Shown: positions 11,282 to 48,742, numbered from the stretch's first letter. The stretch: 64,000 bases of DNA from Gemmataceae bacterium (GCA_045802525.1 JBJMQT010000091.1:11110-75109), one strand, 5' to 3'. A program made the numbers and translations. Notes: generated by a model from the letters alone, not told the origin.

Positions 11282-11338
11282 TGCGTGAGCACCGGGAGTT
11301 GTCCAGCAGACGCGCCTTGGCAAATCGAAACTGGTTAA

Positions 11339-12697
<1,359 letters not shown>

Positions 12698-15051: not shown

Positions 15052-15083
15052 GGTCGCCGTTTCCAAACGAAAACGAAAGTTAT

Positions 15084-15157
15084 TCGGGGCGACAGGATTC
15101 GAACCTGCGACTTCTTGGTCCCAAACCAAGCGCTCTGCCAGGCTGAGCTACGCCCCG
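15084..15157 (-). tRNA. tRNA-Pro (anticodon TGG)
   Basis: The reverse complement CGGGGCGTAGCTCAGCCTGGCAGAGCGCTTGGTTTGGGACCAAGAAGTCGCAGGTTCGAATCCTGTCGCCCCGA folds as a canonical cloverleaf. It has a 7-bp acceptor stem, a GCTC/GAGC D-stem, a CTTGG/CCAAG anticodon stem with loop TTTGGGA, and a TTCGAAT T-loop. CCA is not encoded. Confidence 0.95.
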
Positions 15158-15214
15158 ATATTGGCATGTGTAGCCTAGCGGAATCGCTGCGCGACGGCAA
15201 TTGTGAGTGGGTGG

Positions 15215-40055: not shown

Positions 40056-41300
40056 ATGCTCGACCGCCGTACTTTCCTGGCCCGCACGCTTCAAGGCTCG
40101 TCGCTGCTTGCATTGGGCGGCGTGGTGCCCCAATTCCTTGCCAACACAGCTCGGGCTGCTGAAGTCGGCAAGGATTCGGTCCTGGTCGTTATTGAAATGA
40201 CCGGCGGCAATGACGGACTCAATACCGTCATTCCGTATGCGGATGATATCTATCAAAAGGCGAGACCGACCCTACGTTTTGCCAAAGACAAAGTTATAAA
40301 AGTTGATGATTACATCGGCCTGCATCCGGCCATGAAAGCGTTCGGCACCATGTTGCAGAATCAATCGCTGGCAATTGTGCAGGGCGTCGGCTATCCCAAC
40401 CCCGACCGCTCGCATTTCGAGTCCATGGACGTTTGGCAGTCGGCCGATCCGTTGCGCAAGATCGGCACCGGCTGGATTGGCCGCAGCACCACGGACTTGC
40501 AGGATAAAAAAGGCAATGTCCCCGTGGTTCAGCTCGGGCCCAATCGCCTCCCTTTGGCCCTGCAAGGCTCATCGGCCGGCGTGGTGAGCATCAATAACGA
40601 GCAAGCCTATATTCTGGATCTCGGCAAGGGCGACGCCGAACGCAAACAAGCTCGCCGCAAACTCATTCAAGACCTTGCCGAACCCGGCCCATCCGGCAAA
40701 GCCGACGACCTGCTTCAGTTCATTCAGCGCCGCCAAATCCAAACCTACAGCACGCTGGACCGCCTGCGCGACATTTTGAAAGAAGACAAGAAAGCCGACC
40801 AGAATGTCCCGGCCACGCCGCTGGGGCAAAAGATGGCGTTGATCGCCCGGCTGATTGCCAAGGGGTTTGGCACTCGCGTCTTTTACGTCATGATCGACGG
40901 CTTCGACACCCATTCCGGACAAGCCGAAGAGCAACAGAGGCTGCTGACCGAACTTTCGGACGCGGTAAACTTCCTTTTCACCCGTCTTAAGGAAACCGGC
41001 CATGACAAACGCGTGCTGGCGATGACGTTTTCGGAATTCGGCCGTCGCGTTCATGAAAACGGCAGCAAGGGAACCGATCACGGGGCCGCCTCTTGTTTGT
41101 TGGTGGCCGGTCCGGCGGTGAAGGGCGGCCCGATTACCAAACACCCCAGCTTGGCCGACCTCGACGCCGGCGATCTCAAGCACAACACCGACTTCCGCAG
41201 CCTCTACGCCACGCTGCTCGACCAATGGCTAAACGTCGACAGCAAGACCGTGCTGGGCTCAAAATTCAACCACTTGGAGCTGTTGCGGAATAAGCTGTAA
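40056..41300 (+). CDS. DUF1501 domain protein (sulfatase-like fold) with a Tat signal
   Basis: MLDRRTFLARTLQGSSLLALGG...ARA is a twin-arginine-type leader. GGNDGLNTV, DGFDTH and TDHG are typical DUF1501 blocks. Confidence 0.85.
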   Translation: MLDRRTFLARTLQGSSLLALGGVVPQFLANTARAAEVGKDSVLVVIEMTGGNDGLNTVIPYADDIYQKARPTLRFAKDKVIKVDDYIGLHPAMKAFGTMLQNQSLAIVQGVGYPNPDRSHFESMDVWQSADPLRKIGTGWIGRSTTDLQDKKGNVPVVQLGPNRLPLALQGSSAGVVSINNEQAYILDLGKGDAERKQARRKLIQDLAEPGPSGKADDLLQFIQRRQIQTYSTLDRLRDILKEDKKADQNVPATPLGQKMALIARLIAKGFGTRVFYVMIDGFDTHSGQAEEQQRLLTELSDAVNFLFTRLKETGHDKRVLAMTFSEFGRRVHENGSKGTDHGAASCLLVAGPAVKGGPITKHPSLADLDAGDLKHNTDFRSLYATLLDQWLNVDSKTVLGSKFNHLELLRNKL

Positions 41301-41375
41301 AGCTTTGGGCGACTGTAATTCCCATACCCTGAGACGCCATCAAAAGCGCCGCCGCAATGGTAGTGAAAAACGACA

Positions 41376-41410
41376 GGCCCTCCTGAAGGATCTTCAGGAG
41401 GACCTTTTGG
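41376..41410 (+). terminator. Rho-independent terminator after the DUF1501 gene
   Basis: Perfect 10-bp stem CCTCCTGAAG/CTTCAGGAGG (41379-41388 / 41392-41401) with loop GAT, followed by ACCTTTTGG. Confidence 0.6.
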
Positions 41411-41687
41411 TTAGCTGTTCGCGTTTCCGGCGCTGCTTGCTTTCCACAAAGTAGAATCGGCATAAACTTTCCTGCTTTTCTGCCGCTTTAATAAGCAGCT
41501 TGTAGCCATTGCCAATCCTTATGGTGCATCTATAGCAACTCCACCTCCTTTCCTGCTTCTCCTACGCATTTCAATTGCGTTTCTCAGCCTCATCCCAGAC
41601 AATGCTGGCTAACTAGAGAACCCTGCCGGACGGCCCGGGAGCTGTCTAGCTCGACCGGCGGATTGCCTGTCCCTTTAAGGTCAAGTC

Positions 41688-43310
41688 ATGCCCATTCGTT
41701 TTGTCTGCTTTGCCTGTGGCAGGCATCTAGTGTCAAAGGACAATAAGGCCGGCAGAAGTACGCGGTGCCCCGGTTGTGGTGACCTTGTAACTGTGCCGCC
41801 TACCGTCATTAGTGCCGATGTGAACTCAGTGTTTGAGAAATTAGACCTCCAAACGATTCTTGCCCCGCCCTTGGTGAAAGCAAATACTGCCGAGGTAAGG
41901 ACCGACAACGTCTCGAAAACGTCCACGCATTACGGGCCACATTCTGGAATGACGCCTCCCGTTAATATCACACCGCCAGCACAGGCTTCGCCAGGGCATC
42001 CGCAATCCAACGGAACGGGCTCCAAGGCTTTTATTCTTCCCGCGGCCTGGGCTTCAGTCGGGGGCGGGGTATTGGGTGTTGTCGGTTTGCTAGTCACCCT
42101 TATCCTTTTTCGTGGTGGGAAGCCTGAAGCCCGCGTCGCCCCTGAACCCGAAAACAATTCTGGGAATTCCTTGCACGCCGATTCTGGAAGCTCTCACCTT
42201 TCAGGCGCGTTTTCTGCCGACGCGATATTTGCGAAAGCCTCGCCTAGTGTGGTTCGGATCGAGGTCCATGACCGGGCTTCGCGTTCATTGGCGCAAGGCT
42301 CTGGATTCGTAGTTTCCGAAGAGGGGCTAATCGCCACGAACCATCATGTGATAGAGGGTGCGTATTCCGGCAAGGTAATCTTCGGCGATGGATCGACCTT
42401 TCCGATCGTTGCGGCTGCTGGATATGACCTCGAGTCAGACGTGGCCCTCCTTAAAATCAAGGGCCCCAGGTTCCCCGCCCTTGCTCTGGCAGCAAACGAA
42501 ATAATCCCCATTGGCAAAAAGGTCTTCGCAATAGGCAGTCCAATAGGTTTGACAAATACGCTTAGCGAGGGATTGGCGAGCGGCCACCGACAGATTGGCA
42601 GCTCTTTCAAACTTATTCAGACCACTGCACCCATCAGCCATGGATCCAGCGGTGGCCCCTTGCTTTCGGATAATTGCAAGGTCCTTGGAATAACAACCCT
42701 TAGCTTCTCAGAAGGGCAGAATCTTAACTTTGCAGTACCGGCTGAAAGGATTGCGAAATTAATCGCCTCCCATTCCAACGACACGACTTTAGCCGAGGCT
42801 GGCAGCCGAAGATTACAACATGCTCAGCATCGACCGATTGAAATGCCTACTGCGCCCGAATCCGAAGGCTGGACCAAAGAGGAAAAAGAGAACCTCGGCC
42901 ATTTCTTTCGCTCGATGAATCGACAAGTTAAAGCCTATAAGCTTTTTTATCAGGCTTTGAAAGATAAGACGACAAATACGGCAGAACGGAATGCTGAAAT
43001 TGAGGACGCCCTGAATGCAGCCTCCGAGGAGGCGAGACTTGTAAAGCCAAAGGCACTAGACAAAGCTCACCCCGATATGCCTCGTATGTTTCGCGAAACG
43101 TTTCTCCGGGAACTCGATCTTGCAAGAATTGCGATGGCCGGACTTACCTCCAAGAGCAAGGAAGAACGTGACCAACTTAGCGAACCGGTTAGGGAGTTCG
43201 TCTCGCGTTCTGAAGAGCGCGACAAATGGTGGAACGCGCATCGCTTCGACCTTGACATACCCGACGATGTTCCCTTTTGGGATGCTAAGAGGTCCGATAT
43301 TGATTGGTGA
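41688..43310 (+). CDS. Zn-ribbon / single-TM / trypsin-like (S1C) serine protease with a helical C-terminal extension
   Basis: The N-terminus CFACGRHL...CPGCG is a double-CxxC ribbon, and the TM segment is AWASVGGGVLGVVGLLVTLILF. The catalytic contexts are ATNHHV (His), DVALLKI (Asp) and GSSGGPL (Ser). The last 170 aa or so are unassigned. Confidence 0.8.
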   Translation: MPIRFVCFACGRHLVSKDNKAGRSTRCPGCGDLVTVPPTVISADVNSVFEKLDLQTILAPPLVKANTAEVRTDNVSKTSTHYGPHSGMTPPVNITPPAQASPGHPQSNGTGSKAFILPAAWASVGGGVLGVVGLLVTLILFRGGKPEARVAPEPENNSGNSLHADSGSSHLSGAFSADAIFAKASPSVVRIEVHDRASRSLAQGSGFVVSEEGLIATNHHVIEGAYSGKVIFGDGSTFPIVAAAGYDLESDVALLKIKGPRFPALALAANEIIPIGKKVFAIGSPIGLTNTLSEGLASGHRQIGSSFKLIQTTAPISHGSSGGPLLSDNCKVLGITTLSFSEGQNLNFAVPAERIAKLIASHSNDTTLAEAGSRRLQHAQHRPIEMPTAPESEGWTKEEKENLGHFFRSMNRQVKAYKLFYQALKDKTTNTAERNAEIEDALNAASEEARLVKPKALDKAHPDMPRMFRETFLRELDLARIAMAGLTSKSKEERDQLSEPVREFVSRSEERDKWWNAHRFDLDIPDDVPFWDAKRSDIDW

Positions 43311-43506
43311 AAGCCTCCTCCGCCTTAGCATACCTAAGATACGCCCCACCACTCCCCCAGCCAGTCGGCTTATTTCCAAAGCGGCTCTGTTGCTTACAAT
43401 GCAACAAACGGGACGGCGGGAGTCACGACTGGTCGGCCTGCCTTCGTGGGTAGTAGCGTACTCGATGTCGGCGAGGCTCTGGCGCTTCCCGCTAAGAGCG
43501 TGTGAC

Positions 43507-44169
43507 ATGGCAAAGAACCAGGACCAACCTACGCGCCACTCCTTCGATGACCACAGCGCCAGCACTCAAAACGGCTGGACCTACCAGCTTGCCGGGTTCC
43601 TGAATCGATGTATGGAAATCCGACCCAGCGAATTCAATAAGCGTTTCAAGTATCTTGTCAAATATCTCAACGCCGCTGGGTGTCCGGGCTACAGTGACTG
43701 GCTGTGCGGTAACCCGGAAGCACCGCCATCTGACCCTACCCCTGAGGTCGAGACGGCCGCGCTGAAAGCAATCCTTAGAGAATTCGACAGCGTTTACGAC
43801 AACCCTACGATGCCAATACTCCCGCCCGATAAGGTCAACGAATTAGGACTATTGCGATCGCGCGCGGTCCGTGCTCTGAAGGCTCGGCTACGGCAACTGG
43901 AAGCCAAGGATTCGCTAGCAATGCTTCCAACGGCTGACTATCCCTCCTTCACGAAAGAGGACTTGAAAATCATTAAGGCCCTCAAGGAAAGCGATCCCGT
44001 GGCCATGAACCAGTACGATTTGGAGGGAAAGGCAAAGTTAAGCCGGCGCACCATCGGACCCCGGTTGGAAACTCTTTCCCATAAGGGGCTTGTCCACTAT
44101 CCACATGGAAAGCGTAAGGGTGCTGCCTTGACTCCGCTCGGAAAAATCACCGCCTCATCGTTCGAATAG
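43507..44169 (+). CDS. Hypothetical protein with a C-terminal winged-helix DNA-binding domain
   Basis: Track ORF 43120..44169 overlaps the protease gene. The first ATG after the protease stop is 43507 (MAKNQDQP...). The C-terminus LKIIKALKESDPVAMNQYDLEGKAKLSRRTIGPRLETLSHKGLVHYP looks like a MarR/ArsR-type wHTH. Confidence 0.5.
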   Translation: MAKNQDQPTRHSFDDHSASTQNGWTYQLAGFLNRCMEIRPSEFNKRFKYLVKYLNAAGCPGYSDWLCGNPEAPPSDPTPEVETAALKAILREFDSVYDNPTMPILPPDKVNELGLLRSRAVRALKARLRQLEAKDSLAMLPTADYPSFTKEDLKIIKALKESDPVAMNQYDLEGKAKLSRRTIGPRLETLSHKGLVHYPHGKRKGAALTPLGKITASSFE

Positions 44170-44383
44170 GCTATAGAGCCGTAGTTGCACACTATTTGCG
44201 CCTAACTTTCCCGCAAGCATTTCTGCCGCGTGTCATTATTGTCATAACGACGGCGCAAACGCTGCTCAATTGCTCAGAGGAATAGCGGTCGGCAGTCGTG
44301 TTGGGATACTAAGACTTCTTTTATCTTAAAAGTCCGCCGACCTCTTAATTCCCTCTTTTTCTATTTTTCTGGGAGTTCAATCA

Positions 44384-45157
44384 ATGCAAATAGTAAAATG
44401 GAAACGAAGTGAAGTACCCCCCGCAGACATTCTGAGTGCAGCTAAGACGATACCGCTGCGCGATGCCCATATGTCGCATTTTCTTGACGAAAAATGGCTG
44501 CCTGCTGAAAAATACCTTGAGTGGGCAAGGCGGGGGCTGCAAATCAAGGACGACATGGGGCTCGATATTGCCGTGTGCTTTGCGAAACGGTCCGTGTGCC
44601 GACGAGTTGACTCTCTTATCCTAAAAAACCATTTACGTAGCTGTTTGCACAAAAAGTATCCTGAGAAGATCAAAGCTCTTTGCGATATAGGCATTCCGAT
44701 TCCAGACATAGTCCAAAGCTGGATCATCGGCCCAAGAAATCAGTTAGAACACAAATATGAAACGGTAAGGAACAATAATGGCCAAGGGGCTATCGAAATT
44801 GCCGACCTATTCATTCGTGCGACGGATGAGGAGGAGAAAAGAGGTTGCATATTCGCGGTTGGATGGAACGTGTTAGGTGGAATGCAATTCGGTTCTGATA
44901 CTGAAATGGTCGTCCAATTTCGTGAGTTTCATTCCAATCCCATGTTGTTTCTGGACATTTTTGAAGAGCCGGAAAAGGCGAAGATTGTTATCCCGCTGGA
45001 AGGCGAGATTATTCTTGCACCAATGAGTGAATTCAGTATTCTTGAAGAAATCGAATTGGCAAATCTGCTTCGACAGCACTACTCCCTTCCAGGTCGATCC
45101 GAAAGGAAGATTCCCGTTCATTTCTATTTGGAAATCAAGCGACAAGGCCAATTTTGA
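44384..45157 (+). CDS. HEPN-like protein (RNQLEH motif) with an uncharacterised C-terminal domain
   Basis: 257 aa, with GGGAG 8 nt upstream of the ATG. An Rx4H motif PRNQLEHKY lies at 44734-44752 after a helical N-terminal region. The gene is clearly AT-rich: the 60-nt line starting at 44881 has 24 G+C. Confidence 0.55.
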   Translation: MQIVKWKRSEVPPADILSAAKTIPLRDAHMSHFLDEKWLPAEKYLEWARRGLQIKDDMGLDIAVCFAKRSVCRRVDSLILKNHLRSCLHKKYPEKIKALCDIGIPIPDIVQSWIIGPRNQLEHKYETVRNNNGQGAIEIADLFIRATDEEEKRGCIFAVGWNVLGGMQFGSDTEMVVQFREFHSNPMLFLDIFEEPEKAKIVIPLEGEIILAPMSEFSILEEIELANLLRQHYSLPGRSERKIPVHFYLEIKRQGQF

Positions 45158-45453
45158 GTGTAGTTAGTTAGCGCTGGCTGGCCTAGAGGTTTGGCTGTCA
45201 GGTTTCGAAGCACCTCTACCACTCTCTTCGTTGGAACTATTAAAGGTGGAGACATTACTTTCATCAAGAGTTCGTCGACCTCGATTATTCGATAATACTC
45301 TGTCTGACGGATGAGACGGCCAATCTCTCTGGCGGACAGGCCGCCGGTGACCCAACGACCGGAAAAACTCCCGGCGCTAAGGCGACGAGGCTCACCCTAT
45401 CAGGAACCAGAGAAAGTTGCGGAAGAAGTTGTAGAGAAATGATCTACCGAACG

Positions 45454-45491
45454 AAAGGCCCTCCTGGTTCACTGTTCCCAGGAGGGCCTTT
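45454..45491 (-). terminator. Rho-independent terminator after 45518..46711 (possibly bidirectional)
   Basis: Perfect 12-bp stem AGGCCCTCCTGG/CCAGGAGGGCCT (45456-45467 / 45478-45489), extendable by AA/TT. On the minus strand it is followed by TTTCGTT. Confidence 0.6.
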
Positions 45492-45517
45492 GACTTGGCG
45501 GTCGCAATCCGCGAAGC

Positions 45518-46711
45518 TCAGTCCTTTTTGACCTGTCCCACCACGAGCGTAACCGGCTCGCCCTTATAGAGCAGCTTGGACTTCAATTCAAATCCCTTGT
45601 TCAAGGGACGGTACTCAAACGGCCCGGCGCCGAATGGGTCCTTAATGTCGTTGACCTTGTCTTGACCGCCTTGCACAATCGCGAGCGCGGCCTTGAATAG
45701 CGCTATCTGGGTCTGAAGCCGGCGTTCGCCTGGAACAAAGTTGTTCATGTTCGGCAGCAGATATTCCGCGAGCGGGTTGGCGGCTTTCGCTTTCTTAACA
45801 AACTCCGGATATTGGGCGTCGAATTCTTTCGGGGGGAGACTCACCAACTTGGTCAGTTGATCGAACAAGGGCAACAGTCCTTCAAGGGCCTTGGTGGCCT
45901 CCTCGTAATTTTTGATGGTGTTCACCGAGTCCCGGTTTGGACCCCGGCCCTCAGCGCTGGAAATGATGGCGTCGAAGACCTCGTTCCATACTTCTTGCCA
46001 GGCGCCCGGTTTTTGCTGTTCGGCGGTTTTGATCCTTTGGAGGAGCCACGCCGGCCCCACTTCCTTTTCCCTACGGACGATTTGCTGAATCGTCGGCGCG
46101 GCCGGCAATCGATCCAGGTCGGCGGCGGCGTTTTCGGGAAGTCCTGATTTCGATTCCGGCAGGTAAGGTGCCGCTGCCTCCATCGCCATCCTTTCGATTC
46201 GGTAACCCACCAGCCTGGTAATGAAAGTTTCGGCCATTTCCACGTGCCGGCCCAGATAGAACACGGCGGTTACGTCGGTCCAACCGGATTTCCAGCGACC
46301 TTGCTTAAACTCATGCCGGGCGTGCAGGGCGGTCAAGCGCGCGAGGGTCAGCGCTTTGCCCAGAAAGGGCATACGCAGCCATATGCCGTCGTCGTAATCC
46401 AAACTCCAATCGCAGCGTTGCAGCTTCGCCGCGCGCCCCAAATATTCCCGGCTAGGCTCCCCCTTTTCGATGAGCTTGAGCGCCGCCGCATCCAAAGGCA
46501 CTTTATTCCAGTCCTCGAGGAGCTTTTCCTGGTCCTTGTCCAGGTTCGGCAGCAGGGCAAAGGCTTGCCAATACTTCATCGCCGCATTGGCGCCCAGGTC
46601 CGTTGCGTTGGGGCGGTTCTCCTTATCGCCCCTCCCCGTCTGGCCCCCAGCGACAGTAGGCGTGAGCAAGGCCAGGGACAGAATCAACGCCGCGAAGCTT
46701 CGATACCGCAT
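45518..46711 (-). CDS. Secreted hypothetical protein, last gene of the ECF sigma operon
   Basis: Signal peptide MRYRSFAALILSLALLTPTVAGG. Its start overlaps the stop of the anti-sigma gene (TAATG). Confidence 0.65.
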   Translation of the reverse strand: MRYRSFAALILSLALLTPTVAGGQTGRGDKENRPNATDLGANAAMKYWQAFALLPNLDKDQEKLLEDWNKVPLDAAALKLIEKGEPSREYLGRAAKLQRCDWSLDYDDGIWLRMPFLGKALTLARLTALHARHEFKQGRWKSGWTDVTAVFYLGRHVEMAETFITRLVGYRIERMAMEAAAPYLPESKSGLPENAAADLDRLPAAPTIQQIVRREKEVGPAWLLQRIKTAEQQKPGAWQEVWNEVFDAIISSAEGRGPNRDSVNTIKNYEEATKALEGLLPLFDQLTKLVSLPPKEFDAQYPEFVKKAKAANPLAEYLLPNMNNFVPGERRLQTQIALFKAALAIVQGGQDKVNDIKDPFGAGPFEYRPLNKGFELKSKLLYKGEPVTLVVGQVKKD

Positions 46712-47148
46712 TAGTCATCTCCTAATAGTTCGTGCAATTCCGCGTTTGACCAGTTGAAAGAATGAATGCGCATCTGCTCGGGGTTGGCCTCCGCAGCGCT
46801 ATGAGCTTCCCTGTCGATCAGGGCCTCGAGTTCTTCGGGCGACCGGGCGAGAGCGCACTGGTAATCCAGAAGCGTGGGTTCGACCTTCTCTTCCGCGAGG
46901 GGCAAAACGTCACGGACAACAATCGGTTCGGGACGGACGTCGCGGCCGGACTGGCGCCAGAGAATGATCGCCGCCGCCAAGCAAGCAGCGGCCAAGCCGC
47001 CGGCCAGAGCAAGCCGCCACACCGGGGGAAACCTCCTGGGCGAAGCATCGACCAGCCGCTCGGCGACGCGCCGGCGCAACCGGGGTGATACTTCACAAGG
47101 CCGCAAAGCCGATAATTCGATTTCCAGGGGGTCAGGAGCATCATTCAT
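46711..47148 (-). CDS. Putative anti-sigma factor (single TM)
   Basis: 145 aa with the central TM WRLALAGGLAAACLAAAIILW. It overlaps the sigma gene by 4 nt (ATGA), in the classic position after an ECF sigma gene. Confidence 0.6.
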   Translation of the reverse strand: MNDAPDPLEIELSALRPCEVSPRLRRRVAERLVDASPRRFPPVWRLALAGGLAAACLAAAIILWRQSGRDVRPEPIVVRDVLPLAEEKVEPTLLDYQCALARSPEELEALIDREAHSAAEANPEQMRIHSFNWSNAELHELLGDD

Positions 47149-47642
47149 GGAATCGACTCCTCAGCCAATTGCTCGCGCAACTTGGCCAGAGCATAACGGT
47201 AGCGGGACGCGGCGGTGTTGGCGGAGATTCCCAGAGCCTCGGCGATCTGCGGAAACGATAAACCGCCCCAGATCTTCATCGCCAGCACCTCGCGCTGGTT
47301 TTCCGGGAGAAGCAACATGGCGTCGGCGATGGCAGTACGGCGTTCATCTTTCTCTAACGAACCGGCGAACAACGGCGCCCTTTCGGGGCGGGCGACCATC
47401 GCTTCTCGCCTAGACTGCCTCAGCCGATTGCGCTGCCAGTCCAGAGCACAATGCTTCATGCAGGCGTAGAGGTAAGCGGTTGGGTCCTTGGCTCGCTCTC
47501 TGGAGCGCCAGAAGCGGACAAAGGCTTCTTGGACAACATCCTCGGCATCCGCGCGGCTGGGCGCCCATTGCCGCGCCAAGAGGACCAGCACGGGCCCGTG
47601 CTTGTCGAGCCAAACTGCCCATTCGTCACGAGCGCCCGCCAT
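47145..47642 (-). CDS. ECF-type RNA polymerase sigma factor (sigma-70 family)
   Basis: Region 2 is DAEDVVQEAFVRFW, and the region 4 HTH is LSFPQIAEALGISANTAASRYRYALAKLR. Confidence 0.9.
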   Translation of the reverse strand: MAGARDEWAVWLDKHGPVLVLLARQWAPSRADAEDVVQEAFVRFWRSRERAKDPTAYLYACMKHCALDWQRNRLRQSRREAMVARPERAPLFAGSLEKDERRTAIADAMLLLPENQREVLAMKIWGGLSFPQIAEALGISANTAASRYRYALAKLREQLAEESIP

Positions 47643-48121: not shown

Positions 48122-48742
48122 TCATTGACTGCCAATTTCATCTCTTGCTCCCTGTGCTGATAGTGGCCGGTGCGAAATAACCGGCTCGATCCGGCGGTCC
48201 GGGACTAGCCAGATCACGGCTACAAGGCAGTACAGGGCACAGGCAATCCAGGGATGGATGAATGCCGCTAGAATAGCAACCAAGTATATGGCCACAGATG
48301 CCTTCCCTTTGAAATCGTTTCCGATCGCCGTCGCGATGGTAGATTCGCGACCGTGGTGCCCGATCAAGACACGCACGAGGATGTAGTAGGCCAGCCCTGA
48401 AAAAAGCAGGACCGTTCCATACGTGGCAACGGGCCAGGTGGCAAAGTGGCTCACTCCCAACCAGTTGGTGACAAAGGGAACAAGGGAAAGCCAAAACAAA
48501 AGATGGAGATTCGCCCAGAGGACACGGCCATTGACATGCTGTGTGGCCTGGAACAAGTGATGGTGGTTGTTCCAGTAAATGCCAACGTGAACAAAGCTCA
48601 GCATGTAACTCAGAAGCGTCGGGAGAAGAGGAGCCAACGAGACAATGTCCGATCCCTGCGGAGCTTTCAGATCGAGCACCATGATCGTGATAATGATTGC
48701 CAACACGCCATCACTAAATGCTTCCAACCGGCCTTTCTTCAT
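48122..48742 (-). CDS. TMEM175/DUF1211 family potassium-channel-like membrane protein
   Basis: The N-terminal RLEAFSDGVLAIIITIMVL motif is the family hallmark. The protein has 6 TM segments. Confidence 0.8.
   Translation of the reverse strand: MKKGRLEAFSDGVLAIIITIMVLDLKAPQGSDIVSLAPLLPTLLSYMLSFVHVGIYWNNHHHLFQATQHVNGRVLWANLHLLFWLSLVPFVTNWLGVSHFATWPVATYGTVLLFSGLAYYILVRVLIGHHGRESTIATAIGNDFKGKASVAIYLVAILAAFIHPWIACALYCLVAVIWLVPDRRIEPVISHRPLSAQGARDEIGSQ

Follow-up and report, generated by a model that had tools for sequence, protein, structure and literature searches.

Do three co-directional genes gathered in one compositionally odd interval form a single system, or do they share no more than an address? 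We addressed this question for an islet at ~41.3-45.5 kb of a 64-kb stretch of DNA (hereafter, the window) from a metagenome-assembled genome of a Gemmataceae bacterium (Planctomycetota), whose mean G+C content (GC) is 0.563. The islet sits between a DUF1800/DUF1501 gene pair and a convergent gene for a 397-amino acid (aa) protein (45518-46711, - strand). It contains three open reading frames (ORFs), all on the + strand, which encode a 540-aa HtrA-like serine protease, a 220-aa protein with a winged helix-turn-helix (wHTH) and a 257-aa protein with a HEPN RNase motif. Cas13, Csm6, RNase L, HepT and ApeA all use HEPN RNases as their effectors. A sequence-only reading of the window had placed the ORFs at the positions of Table 1 and had taken them for one horizontally acquired conflict or defence module. 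Our results support the acquisition but not the module: the islet is probably a horizontally acquired mosaic of three independent cargo genes, among them a predicted solo HEPN RNase of the conflict type. What is new here is a sizeable, unannotated family of ~257-aa HEPN proteins with an unassigned accessory domain; the HEPN superfamily itself is known.

The 257-aa protein and its relatives

A word-indexed homology search with the 257-aa protein returned only two relatives, a misleading near-orphan picture. An exhaustive HMMER profile search recovered 869 representatives (50% identity clusters) at E<=1e-3, 92 of them at E<=1e-30, a count that is a lower bound on the size of the family; most of these relatives are 250-270 aa long, and the members examined carry the source label 'hypothetical protein'. 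We aligned 59 full-length members, whose identity to the window protein is 27-44% (24% in one case). W47, D76, N119, H123 and Y125 are invariant among them, and R118, E122, K68, D191 and F217 are conserved in at least 90%. The sequence-only reading had matched PRNQLEHKY in this protein to the Rx4-6H motif of HEPN RNases. The motif is present as described. Among the 129 relatives whose sequences extend over it, 127 keep the pattern R-N-x-x-E-H-x-[YF], the last position being Y in 125 and F in 2; in the remaining two, G replaces the R.

We then examined the predicted structure. With the 59-sequence alignment as input, AlphaFold2 gave a model with a predicted local distance difference test score (pLDDT) of 95.9 and a predicted template-modelling score (pTM) of 0.92; a 3-sequence alignment gave a useless one (pLDDT 44). 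The best matches of the model in the PDB, as found by Foldseek, are all minimal HEPN proteins (1wty, 2q00, 2hsb, 1wwp, 1wol and the HEPN toxin 7ae9), with probabilities up to 0.99, target-normalised template-modelling scores of 0.70-0.72 and a root-mean-square deviation of ~3 A over 119-126 columns. The core comprises helix 1 (residues 41-53), helix 2 (57-81), an insert helix (92-101), helix 3 (108-124) and helix 4 (130-146/148-152). According to the published definition, HEPN domains carry the motif at the end of helix 3, a polar residue after its R and an acidic residue in helix 2 (PMC3710099). In the model, R118-N119-Q-L-E122-H123 ends helix 3, N follows the R and D76 lies in helix 2; the additional helix between helices 2 and 3 and the kink in helix 4 also agree with this definition. 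Because the model, the Foldseek matches and the conservation all fit the published description, a HEPN fold and a catalytic-type site are supported for the 257-aa protein at the level of a predicted structure. By prediction, its stand-alone relatives are probably RNases.

Some results from the same searches weigh against this assignment. The Foldseek E-values are weak (0.3-0.5), and no Pfam, NCBIfam, PADLOC or PDB-sequence profile ties the 59 members to a known HEPN family. A single member matches the Pfam HepT-like family at a non-significant E=0.19, and the sole match of the family profile among PDB sequences, 6kn5, is at chance level (E=0.87). Since no sequence-profile match is significant, it is the fold and the motif that carry the assignment to the HEPN superfamily.

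Residues 1-37 and 155-257 form a second, alpha/beta domain in the AlphaFold2 model, composed of beta-strands and three or four helices, and Foldseek found no structural match for it in the PDB or in BFVD, which likewise counts against our reading. A Foldseek search of BFVD viral structures with the HEPN protein also found nothing. We considered an MNT-like nucleotidyltransferase for this domain, as in fused MNT-HEPN proteins (PMC13000451), and rejected it on sequence grounds, since the alignment has no conserved GS...DxD-type motif. The longer family members (P0128, P0145, P0151 and others) contain no informative fused domains, and distant relatives that cover the HEPN core only likewise match no Pfam family.

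Genomic contexts of the three genes

If the islet encoded one system, its genes might be expected to travel together. We collected 44 other HEPN-family loci, part of them via a motif-homogeneous alignment subset (A4), and searched them by tblastn for the protease and the wHTH protein. Neither was present. An all-against-all comparison of the neighbours in 38 loci revealed no recurrent partner apart from near-duplicate contigs. The three-gene module of the sequence-only reading is therefore not sustained by the comparison of gene neighbourhoods across genomes: the trio does not co-occur, the HEPN gene has no recurrent neighbour and, as described below, the wHTH protein is an orphan.

The protease matches Trypsin_2 (Pfam, E=9.4e-26) and, over its protease domain, HtrA/DegP/DegS S1C proteases (E=2e-28 to 1e-19), with HTRA1 structures at E=2.4e-28. 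Its catalytic triad of H220, D251 and S321, the last within GSSGGP, is invariant among homologues, and no PDZ domain was matched in Pfam. The ~170-aa tail is conserved (W-T-x-E-D-K-x-N-L...H-P-D-L-P...F-P-D-E-V-P) and belongs to no Pfam family; a scan of IMG/VR for it found nothing. All parts that had been described from the sequence, namely a double-CxxC ribbon, one transmembrane (TM) segment, an S1C triad and a helical tail, are present. The NCBI annotation calls a 453-aa protein that starts at an internal ATG (residue 88) and omits 41688-41948. We take the 540-aa reading to be right and the NCBI call to be too short, because the homologues P0008 and P0013 conserve the upstream CxxC...CxxC ribbon; the true start is thus probably 41688, and the deposited annotation would miss the cytoplasmic domain.

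In three of the four contexts of the closest protease relatives we found an HTH_17 excisionase-type gene, and a DUF3987 gene, an integrase-like protein, Rad52 and a serpin gene each turn up in individual cases. The fourth contains a second protease paralogue and an extracytoplasmic function (ECF) sigma factor. None of the four has a HEPN gene. Judging from these contexts, the Planctomycetota HtrA-like subfamily to which the protease belongs looks like cargo of integrative elements; the moderately low GC at third codon positions (GC3) of the gene in the window (z=-3.2) agrees. As a separate observation, the region around P0008, the closest full-length homologue (locus L049, 3598-13554), resembles an integrative element: it contains Rad52, an HTH_17 excisionase-type gene, a 615-aa AAA-like protein, an HTH_3 protein, the serpin gene and a 434-aa protein with weak matches to integrase N-terminal domains.

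These data bear directly on the possibility that protease, wHTH protein and HEPN protein act jointly as a new defence system. Their common direction within one interval of odd composition between two similar hairpins speaks for it, and the protease domain scores against PADLOC RT-Protease_XI models (1.5e-14), through the generic trypsin fold only. We nevertheless regard a joint system as very improbable. The genes do not co-occur in the loci compared, and the closest protease homologues keep other neighbours and no HEPN gene. The gaps of 196 nt (protease-wHTH) and 214 nt (wHTH-HEPN), together with the differing GC and GC3 of the genes, point to separate origins. Moreover, the protease domain would be extracytoplasmic, judging from the single TM segment after the Zn ribbon, whereas the HEPN protein would be cytoplasmic.

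The second gene starts at an internal ATG, as NCBI also calls it. A search of 5.8 billion proteins with its product matched only the protein itself. Residues 146-217 match the last ~70 positions, that is, the wHTH part, of the PADLOC CARF3/Csa3 models (1.3e-5), and there are weak Pfam matches to HTH_11 and HVO_A0261_N. The N-terminal 145 residues have no matches, so that a CARF or other sensor domain is unsupported there. Thus the earlier description, in which only the C-terminal winged helix was recognisable, holds for the last 72 residues, and the gene encodes a lineage-specific wHTH DNA-binding protein.

Could this protein nonetheless repress or neutralise the HEPN RNase, the two genes forming a toxin-antitoxin or regulator-effector pair? 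They are adjacent and co-directional, a solo toxin requires some control, the wHTH resembles the C-terminal wHTH of Csa3/CARF3, and HEPN and wHTH proteins are described as dual effectors in type IX retrons (bioRxiv 10.64898/2026.07.14.738597). Set against this, the wHTH protein is without any homologue and none stands beside the 44 other HEPN-family genes, whose upstream neighbours are mutually unrelated. The 214-nt gap holds a terminator-like hairpin, the two genes differ in GC (0.543 vs 0.455), and the islet contains neither a reverse transcriptase nor an Rfam RNA. We therefore judge such a pair to be improbable, and favour independent cargo for these two genes as well.

What does surround the HEPN genes elsewhere is varied. 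The neighbours include XRE-type helix-turn-helix (HTH) proteins, DNA methylases (N6_N4 and Eco57I-type), an HNH nuclease, a tyrosine integrase, an IS66 transposase, an RHS protein and a DRT9 reverse transcriptase. In 18 of the 23 other loci compared, the family gene lies below its flanks in GC (mean -4 points, Wilcoxon p=6e-4), which fits a gene moving on its own. The conflict or defence character proposed in the sequence-only reading thus stands in part: some neighbours are toxin-antitoxin, restriction-modification, integrase or insertion sequence (IS) genes, yet no PADLOC model fits the HEPN protein.

Two further observations concern individual loci. DUF433 antitoxin-like genes lie just downstream of the HEPN genes, on the opposite strand, in three unrelated loci, L007 (3967-4272), L028 (1225-1808) and L031 (1258-1542); the one in L028 forms a pair with a gene for a DUF5615 PIN-like toxin. 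At 3 of 34 loci, DUF433 is too rare for partner status. In L002 (10001-10745), a Fic gene is followed by an interrupted HEPN-family gene, with residues 37-165 and 209-257 in different frames and the middle part lacking, as a result of either pseudogene formation or an indel error in this nanopore-derived contig.

Composition and edges of the islet

The features of the islet are collected in Table 1.

Table 1. Positions of the genes, protein segments, hairpins and repeats in the window
Feature	Position	Strand	Remarks
Left copy of the 21-nt direct repeat, GTTGCGGAATAAGCTGTAAAG	41282-41302	+	Spans the last codons and stop of the DUF1501 gene
Left hairpin; terminator of the DUF1501 gene; left edge of the islet	41368-41412		Pair I1; family D4 at 41369-41385
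Membrane-anchored HtrA-like S1C serine protease, 540 aa	41688-43310	+	Parts from sequence, Pfam and homologues
Zn ribbon of the protease	41706-41777	+	CxxC at residues 7 and 27; conserved in P0008 and P0013
TM segment of the protease	about 42042-42116	+	One hydrophobic segment, residues ~119-143
Protease domain	about 42207-42785	+	Trypsin_2 match
Helical tail of the protease, residues 371-540	about 42798-43307	+	Conserved in P0006-P0010 and P0026
Orphan 220-aa protein with C-terminal wHTH	43507-44169	+	wHTH residues 146-217 (43942-44157)
Stem-loop followed by a T-rich tract; possible terminator	44287-44375	+	Between the wHTH and HEPN genes; fold z=-2.4 for the 214-nt spacer
257-aa protein of the unannotated solo HEPN family	44384-45157	+	HEPN core residues 41-152 (44504-44839); accessory domain 1-37 and 155-257
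PRNQLEHKY, Rx4H catalytic-type motif at the end of helix 3	44732-44758	+	Expected position according to PMC3710099
Right copy of the 21-nt direct repeat, GTTGCGGAAGAAGTTGTAGAG	45416-45436	+	Decayed copy of the DUF1501 gene end, with stop codon
Right hairpin, perfect 14-bp stem; right edge of the islet	45450-45491 (also placed at 45454-45491)		Pair I3; family D4

We computed base composition and tetranucleotide usage along the window. The GC of 41411-45453 is 0.513, as against 0.563 for the window, and an equally low value occurs in 3 of 1200 segments of equal size; the islet is the lowest-GC 4-kb stretch within the 64 kb. The tetranucleotide distance also reaches its maximum here (z=4.6 for the 4-kb segment starting at 42001). 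The sharp drop in composition that had been reported from hand counts is thus real, the counts themselves (24/60 G+C for the line at 44881, 31/60 at 42301 and 44/60 at 46981) were identical on recounting, and the interval is compositionally foreign to the window. The dip is not uniform. Relative to the 39 other genes, the HEPN gene is the most deviant of the three (GC 0.455, z=-5.2; GC3 z=-4.6), and the wHTH gene is within the native range (GC 0.543, z=-1.3 and -1.0).

Both edges carry repeats. The 10-mer GGCCCTCCTG has three matches in the 64 kb, where 0.17 are expected, and all lie at the two hairpins, two of them forming both arms of one hairpin. The stretch common to the hairpins, AACGA[C/A]AGGCCCTCCTG, agrees at 16 of 17 positions. 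The best match of the right hairpin region in the window is the left hairpin (score 31; next unrelated site 25), a score reached in none of 2000 shuffles. The similar bracketing hairpins noticed earlier are therefore present, and their core is exclusive to them within the 64 kb. A second, 21-nt direct repeat is collinear with the hairpin repeat; its copies are identical at 18 of 21 positions, and one of 2000 shuffles scores as well. Its left copy comprises the last codons of the DUF1501 gene. The collinear flanking repeats, together with the composition, favour horizontal acquisition of the islet. They are suggestive of, and do not prove, a 4.1-kb insertion that duplicated or replaced the DUF1501 3' end and terminator. 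Such an insertion, directly downstream of the DUF1501 gene, would have left a decayed duplicate of its last codons and terminator at the far end. Synteny with four Planctomycetota relatives, found via the 397-aa gene (40-57% identical), stops exactly at the 3' end of that gene, beside the islet.

Other observations at the edge weigh against an insertion. A permissive gapped alignment does not chain the flanking repeats (score 19.5 vs 17.5 for the best unrelated match), the islet contains no integrase or recombinase and no tRNA, and none of the four relatives offers an empty site. Together with the native-like composition of the wHTH gene, the barely better alignment and the lack of integrase and tRNA would suit an islet of native DNA, in which the GC dip is gene-to-gene variation and the hairpins resemble each other through convergence of GC-rich terminator stems. 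This explanation would have to accommodate the lowest GC and the strongest tetranucleotide deviation of the 64 kb in one interval, a 10-mer exclusive to the two hairpin sites, a second collinear repeat that duplicates the DUF1501 stop region, and, in the four relatives, different DNA beyond the 3' end of the conserved gene trio described below. We consider it quite unlikely, and retain acquisition from outside as the reading of the islet. The likelihoods that we attach to native DNA and, below, to a non-conflict role of the family partly overlap those of the other readings.

The hairpins may also shape transcription. The right hairpin can terminate transcription from both directions, of the HEPN gene and of the convergent gene at 45518-46711, and the stem-loop at 44287-44375 possibly terminates transcription as well, splitting the wHTH and HEPN genes into separate units. 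Neither tandem repeats nor Rfam RNAs (E<=0.1) able to act as an RNA antitoxin were found in the islet.

Several features lie in or near the islet. The pyrimidine-rich 277-nt spacer upstream of the protease gene contains an imperfect 23-nt direct repeat, CTTTCCTGCTT.TC...CGC.TT, at 41467-41489 and 41548-41570 (78% identical). A 90-codon open frame (...GGLSAREIGRLIRQTEYYRIIEVDELLMKVMSPPLIV...) at 45124-45395 on the - strand shares sequence with the 3' end of the HEPN gene. Upstream of an internal TTG this frame lacks any usable start codon, and it is possibly what is left of a gene. It looked like an HTH remnant, an identification that we dropped for want of a Pfam match. To the right of the islet, 45518-47642 (- strand) encodes an ECF sigma factor (165 aa), an anti-sigma-like protein (145 aa) and the 397-aa secreted protein, which belongs to no Pfam family; this trio is kept in the four other Planctomycetota genomes (L003-L006), and L004 has an additional convergent paralogue of the 397-aa gene (11295-12386). 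A 206-aa protein encoded at 48122-48742 (- strand) matches the TMEM175 potassium-channel family (Pfam E=8.7e-32). The sole tRNA gene of the window, for tRNA-Pro (TGG; 15083-15158, - strand), is distant from the islet.

Proposed mode of action and comparison with known systems

How might a HEPN protein without a partner gene work? Single-HEPN proteins must dimerise (bioRxiv 10.64898/2026.03.20.713152). We propose that two copies of the 257-aa protein would dimerise through their HEPN domains, so that the paired R118/N119/H123 sets, aided by D76, would make up a composite RNase site that needs no metal. As there is no antitoxin gene beside it, the enzyme would have to be kept inactive, either by the accessory domain or through low expression, until a trigger releases it, which is how ApeA works. 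The alpha/beta domain could release the enzyme on sensing a trigger, for instance phage infection; this sensor role is pure inference. The active enzyme would then cut cellular or invader RNA, so that one protein would serve as a conflict or defence effector, as with ApeA.

We tentatively suggest, as one possibility, that one gene of the ~257-aa family suffices as a new anti-phage or abortive-infection system, in which infection is sensed by the alpha/beta domain, novel in structure and enclosing the HEPN core, and a dimeric RNase is then released with no antitoxin involved. The family is almost confined to uncultured soil and sediment bacteria, and catalogues of defence systems would for this reason have missed it. 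RNase activity, dimerisation and a defence phenotype are predictions, a point to be set against this picture along with two others. About half of the neighbours of the family are housekeeping genes, such as those for ThiC, GyrA, peptidases and ABC transporters, and no member was detected on plasmids or phages (tblastn) or on IMG/VR contigs. These observations, as well as the lack of an antitoxin partner and of a PADLOC match, would be expected if the family had a non-conflict role, for instance in RNA processing or in nucleotide or ligand binding, and if its low GC were a family bias. Non-catalytic HEPN domains, however, typically lose the Rx4-6H motif (PMC3710099), which is kept almost throughout this family. 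In addition, its distribution is patchy and without synteny, toxin-antitoxin, restriction-modification, integrase or IS genes adjoin it in several loci, and in most loci the gene is lower in GC than its flanks. We regard a non-conflict role as unlikely and prefer the solo conflict-type RNase.

If this is true, the known HEPN effectors would be joined by a minimal design in which sensor and RNase share one compact solo protein of 257 aa. For annotation pipelines, the family is new, the members examined having no Pfam, NCBIfam or PADLOC model. The islet also holds a caution for genome scanning: co-directional genes in one low-GC interval resembled a system, and comparison across genomes pointed to three unrelated pieces of cargo.

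Comparison with known systems places each gene separately. The protease shares with HtrA, DegP and DegS the S1C protease domain and the conserved His-Asp-Ser triad; it differs in having, instead of a PDZ domain, the N-terminal cytoplasmic Zn ribbon, one TM segment and the ~170-aa helical tail. The second gene product differs from Csa3 and other CARF-wHTH proteins in that the wHTH part alone aligns and no N-terminal CARF domain was found. The adjacency of a wHTH gene and a HEPN gene recalls type IX retrons, which are described as combining a reverse transcriptase and a non-coding RNA with HEPN and wHTH proteins; by contrast, the islet lacks a reverse-transcriptase ORF, nothing in it matches Rfam at E<=0.1, and its wHTH protein is an orphan.

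Among HEPN proteins, AbiV, AbiU2, AbiD/F, the C-terminal domain of AbiA and other HEPN clades (Anantharaman et al. 2013) belong to the same superfamily. They resemble the present family in often being solo or small genes in variable regions whose RNase activity is predicted from Rx4-6H (PMC3710099); none of the 59 members matches the Pfam models, which puts the family outside those clades at the profile level. The best structural matches of the four-helix core are HepT and other minimal HEPN proteins of the HEPN-MNT type VII toxin-antitoxin systems (PF05168, PF01934). Like HepT, the window protein has a single HEPN domain per chain, and hence needs dimerisation, and an RNxxxHxY-type motif at the end of helix 3. 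Unlike HepT, it has no adjacent MNT nucleotidyltransferase gene, either here or in the 44 other loci (among the top 25 of 66 Pfam families from 93 neighbours); it is also about twice as long, with an extra alpha/beta domain that HepT lacks, and has no significant Pfam match.

ApeA is a single-protein HEPN anti-phage system with a sensor domain, which acts as a homodimer and has no partner gene (bioRxiv 10.64898/2026.03.20.713152). It differs from the window protein in size and layout, being ~600 aa long with a C-terminal HEPN domain, whereas the HEPN core of the 257-aa protein is nested within its accessory domain, and none of the 59 members is recognised by a PADLOC or Pfam Apea-HEPN model. 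ApeA is nonetheless the closest functional analogy, since both would combine, in one protein, a domain of unknown function with one HEPN RNase domain.

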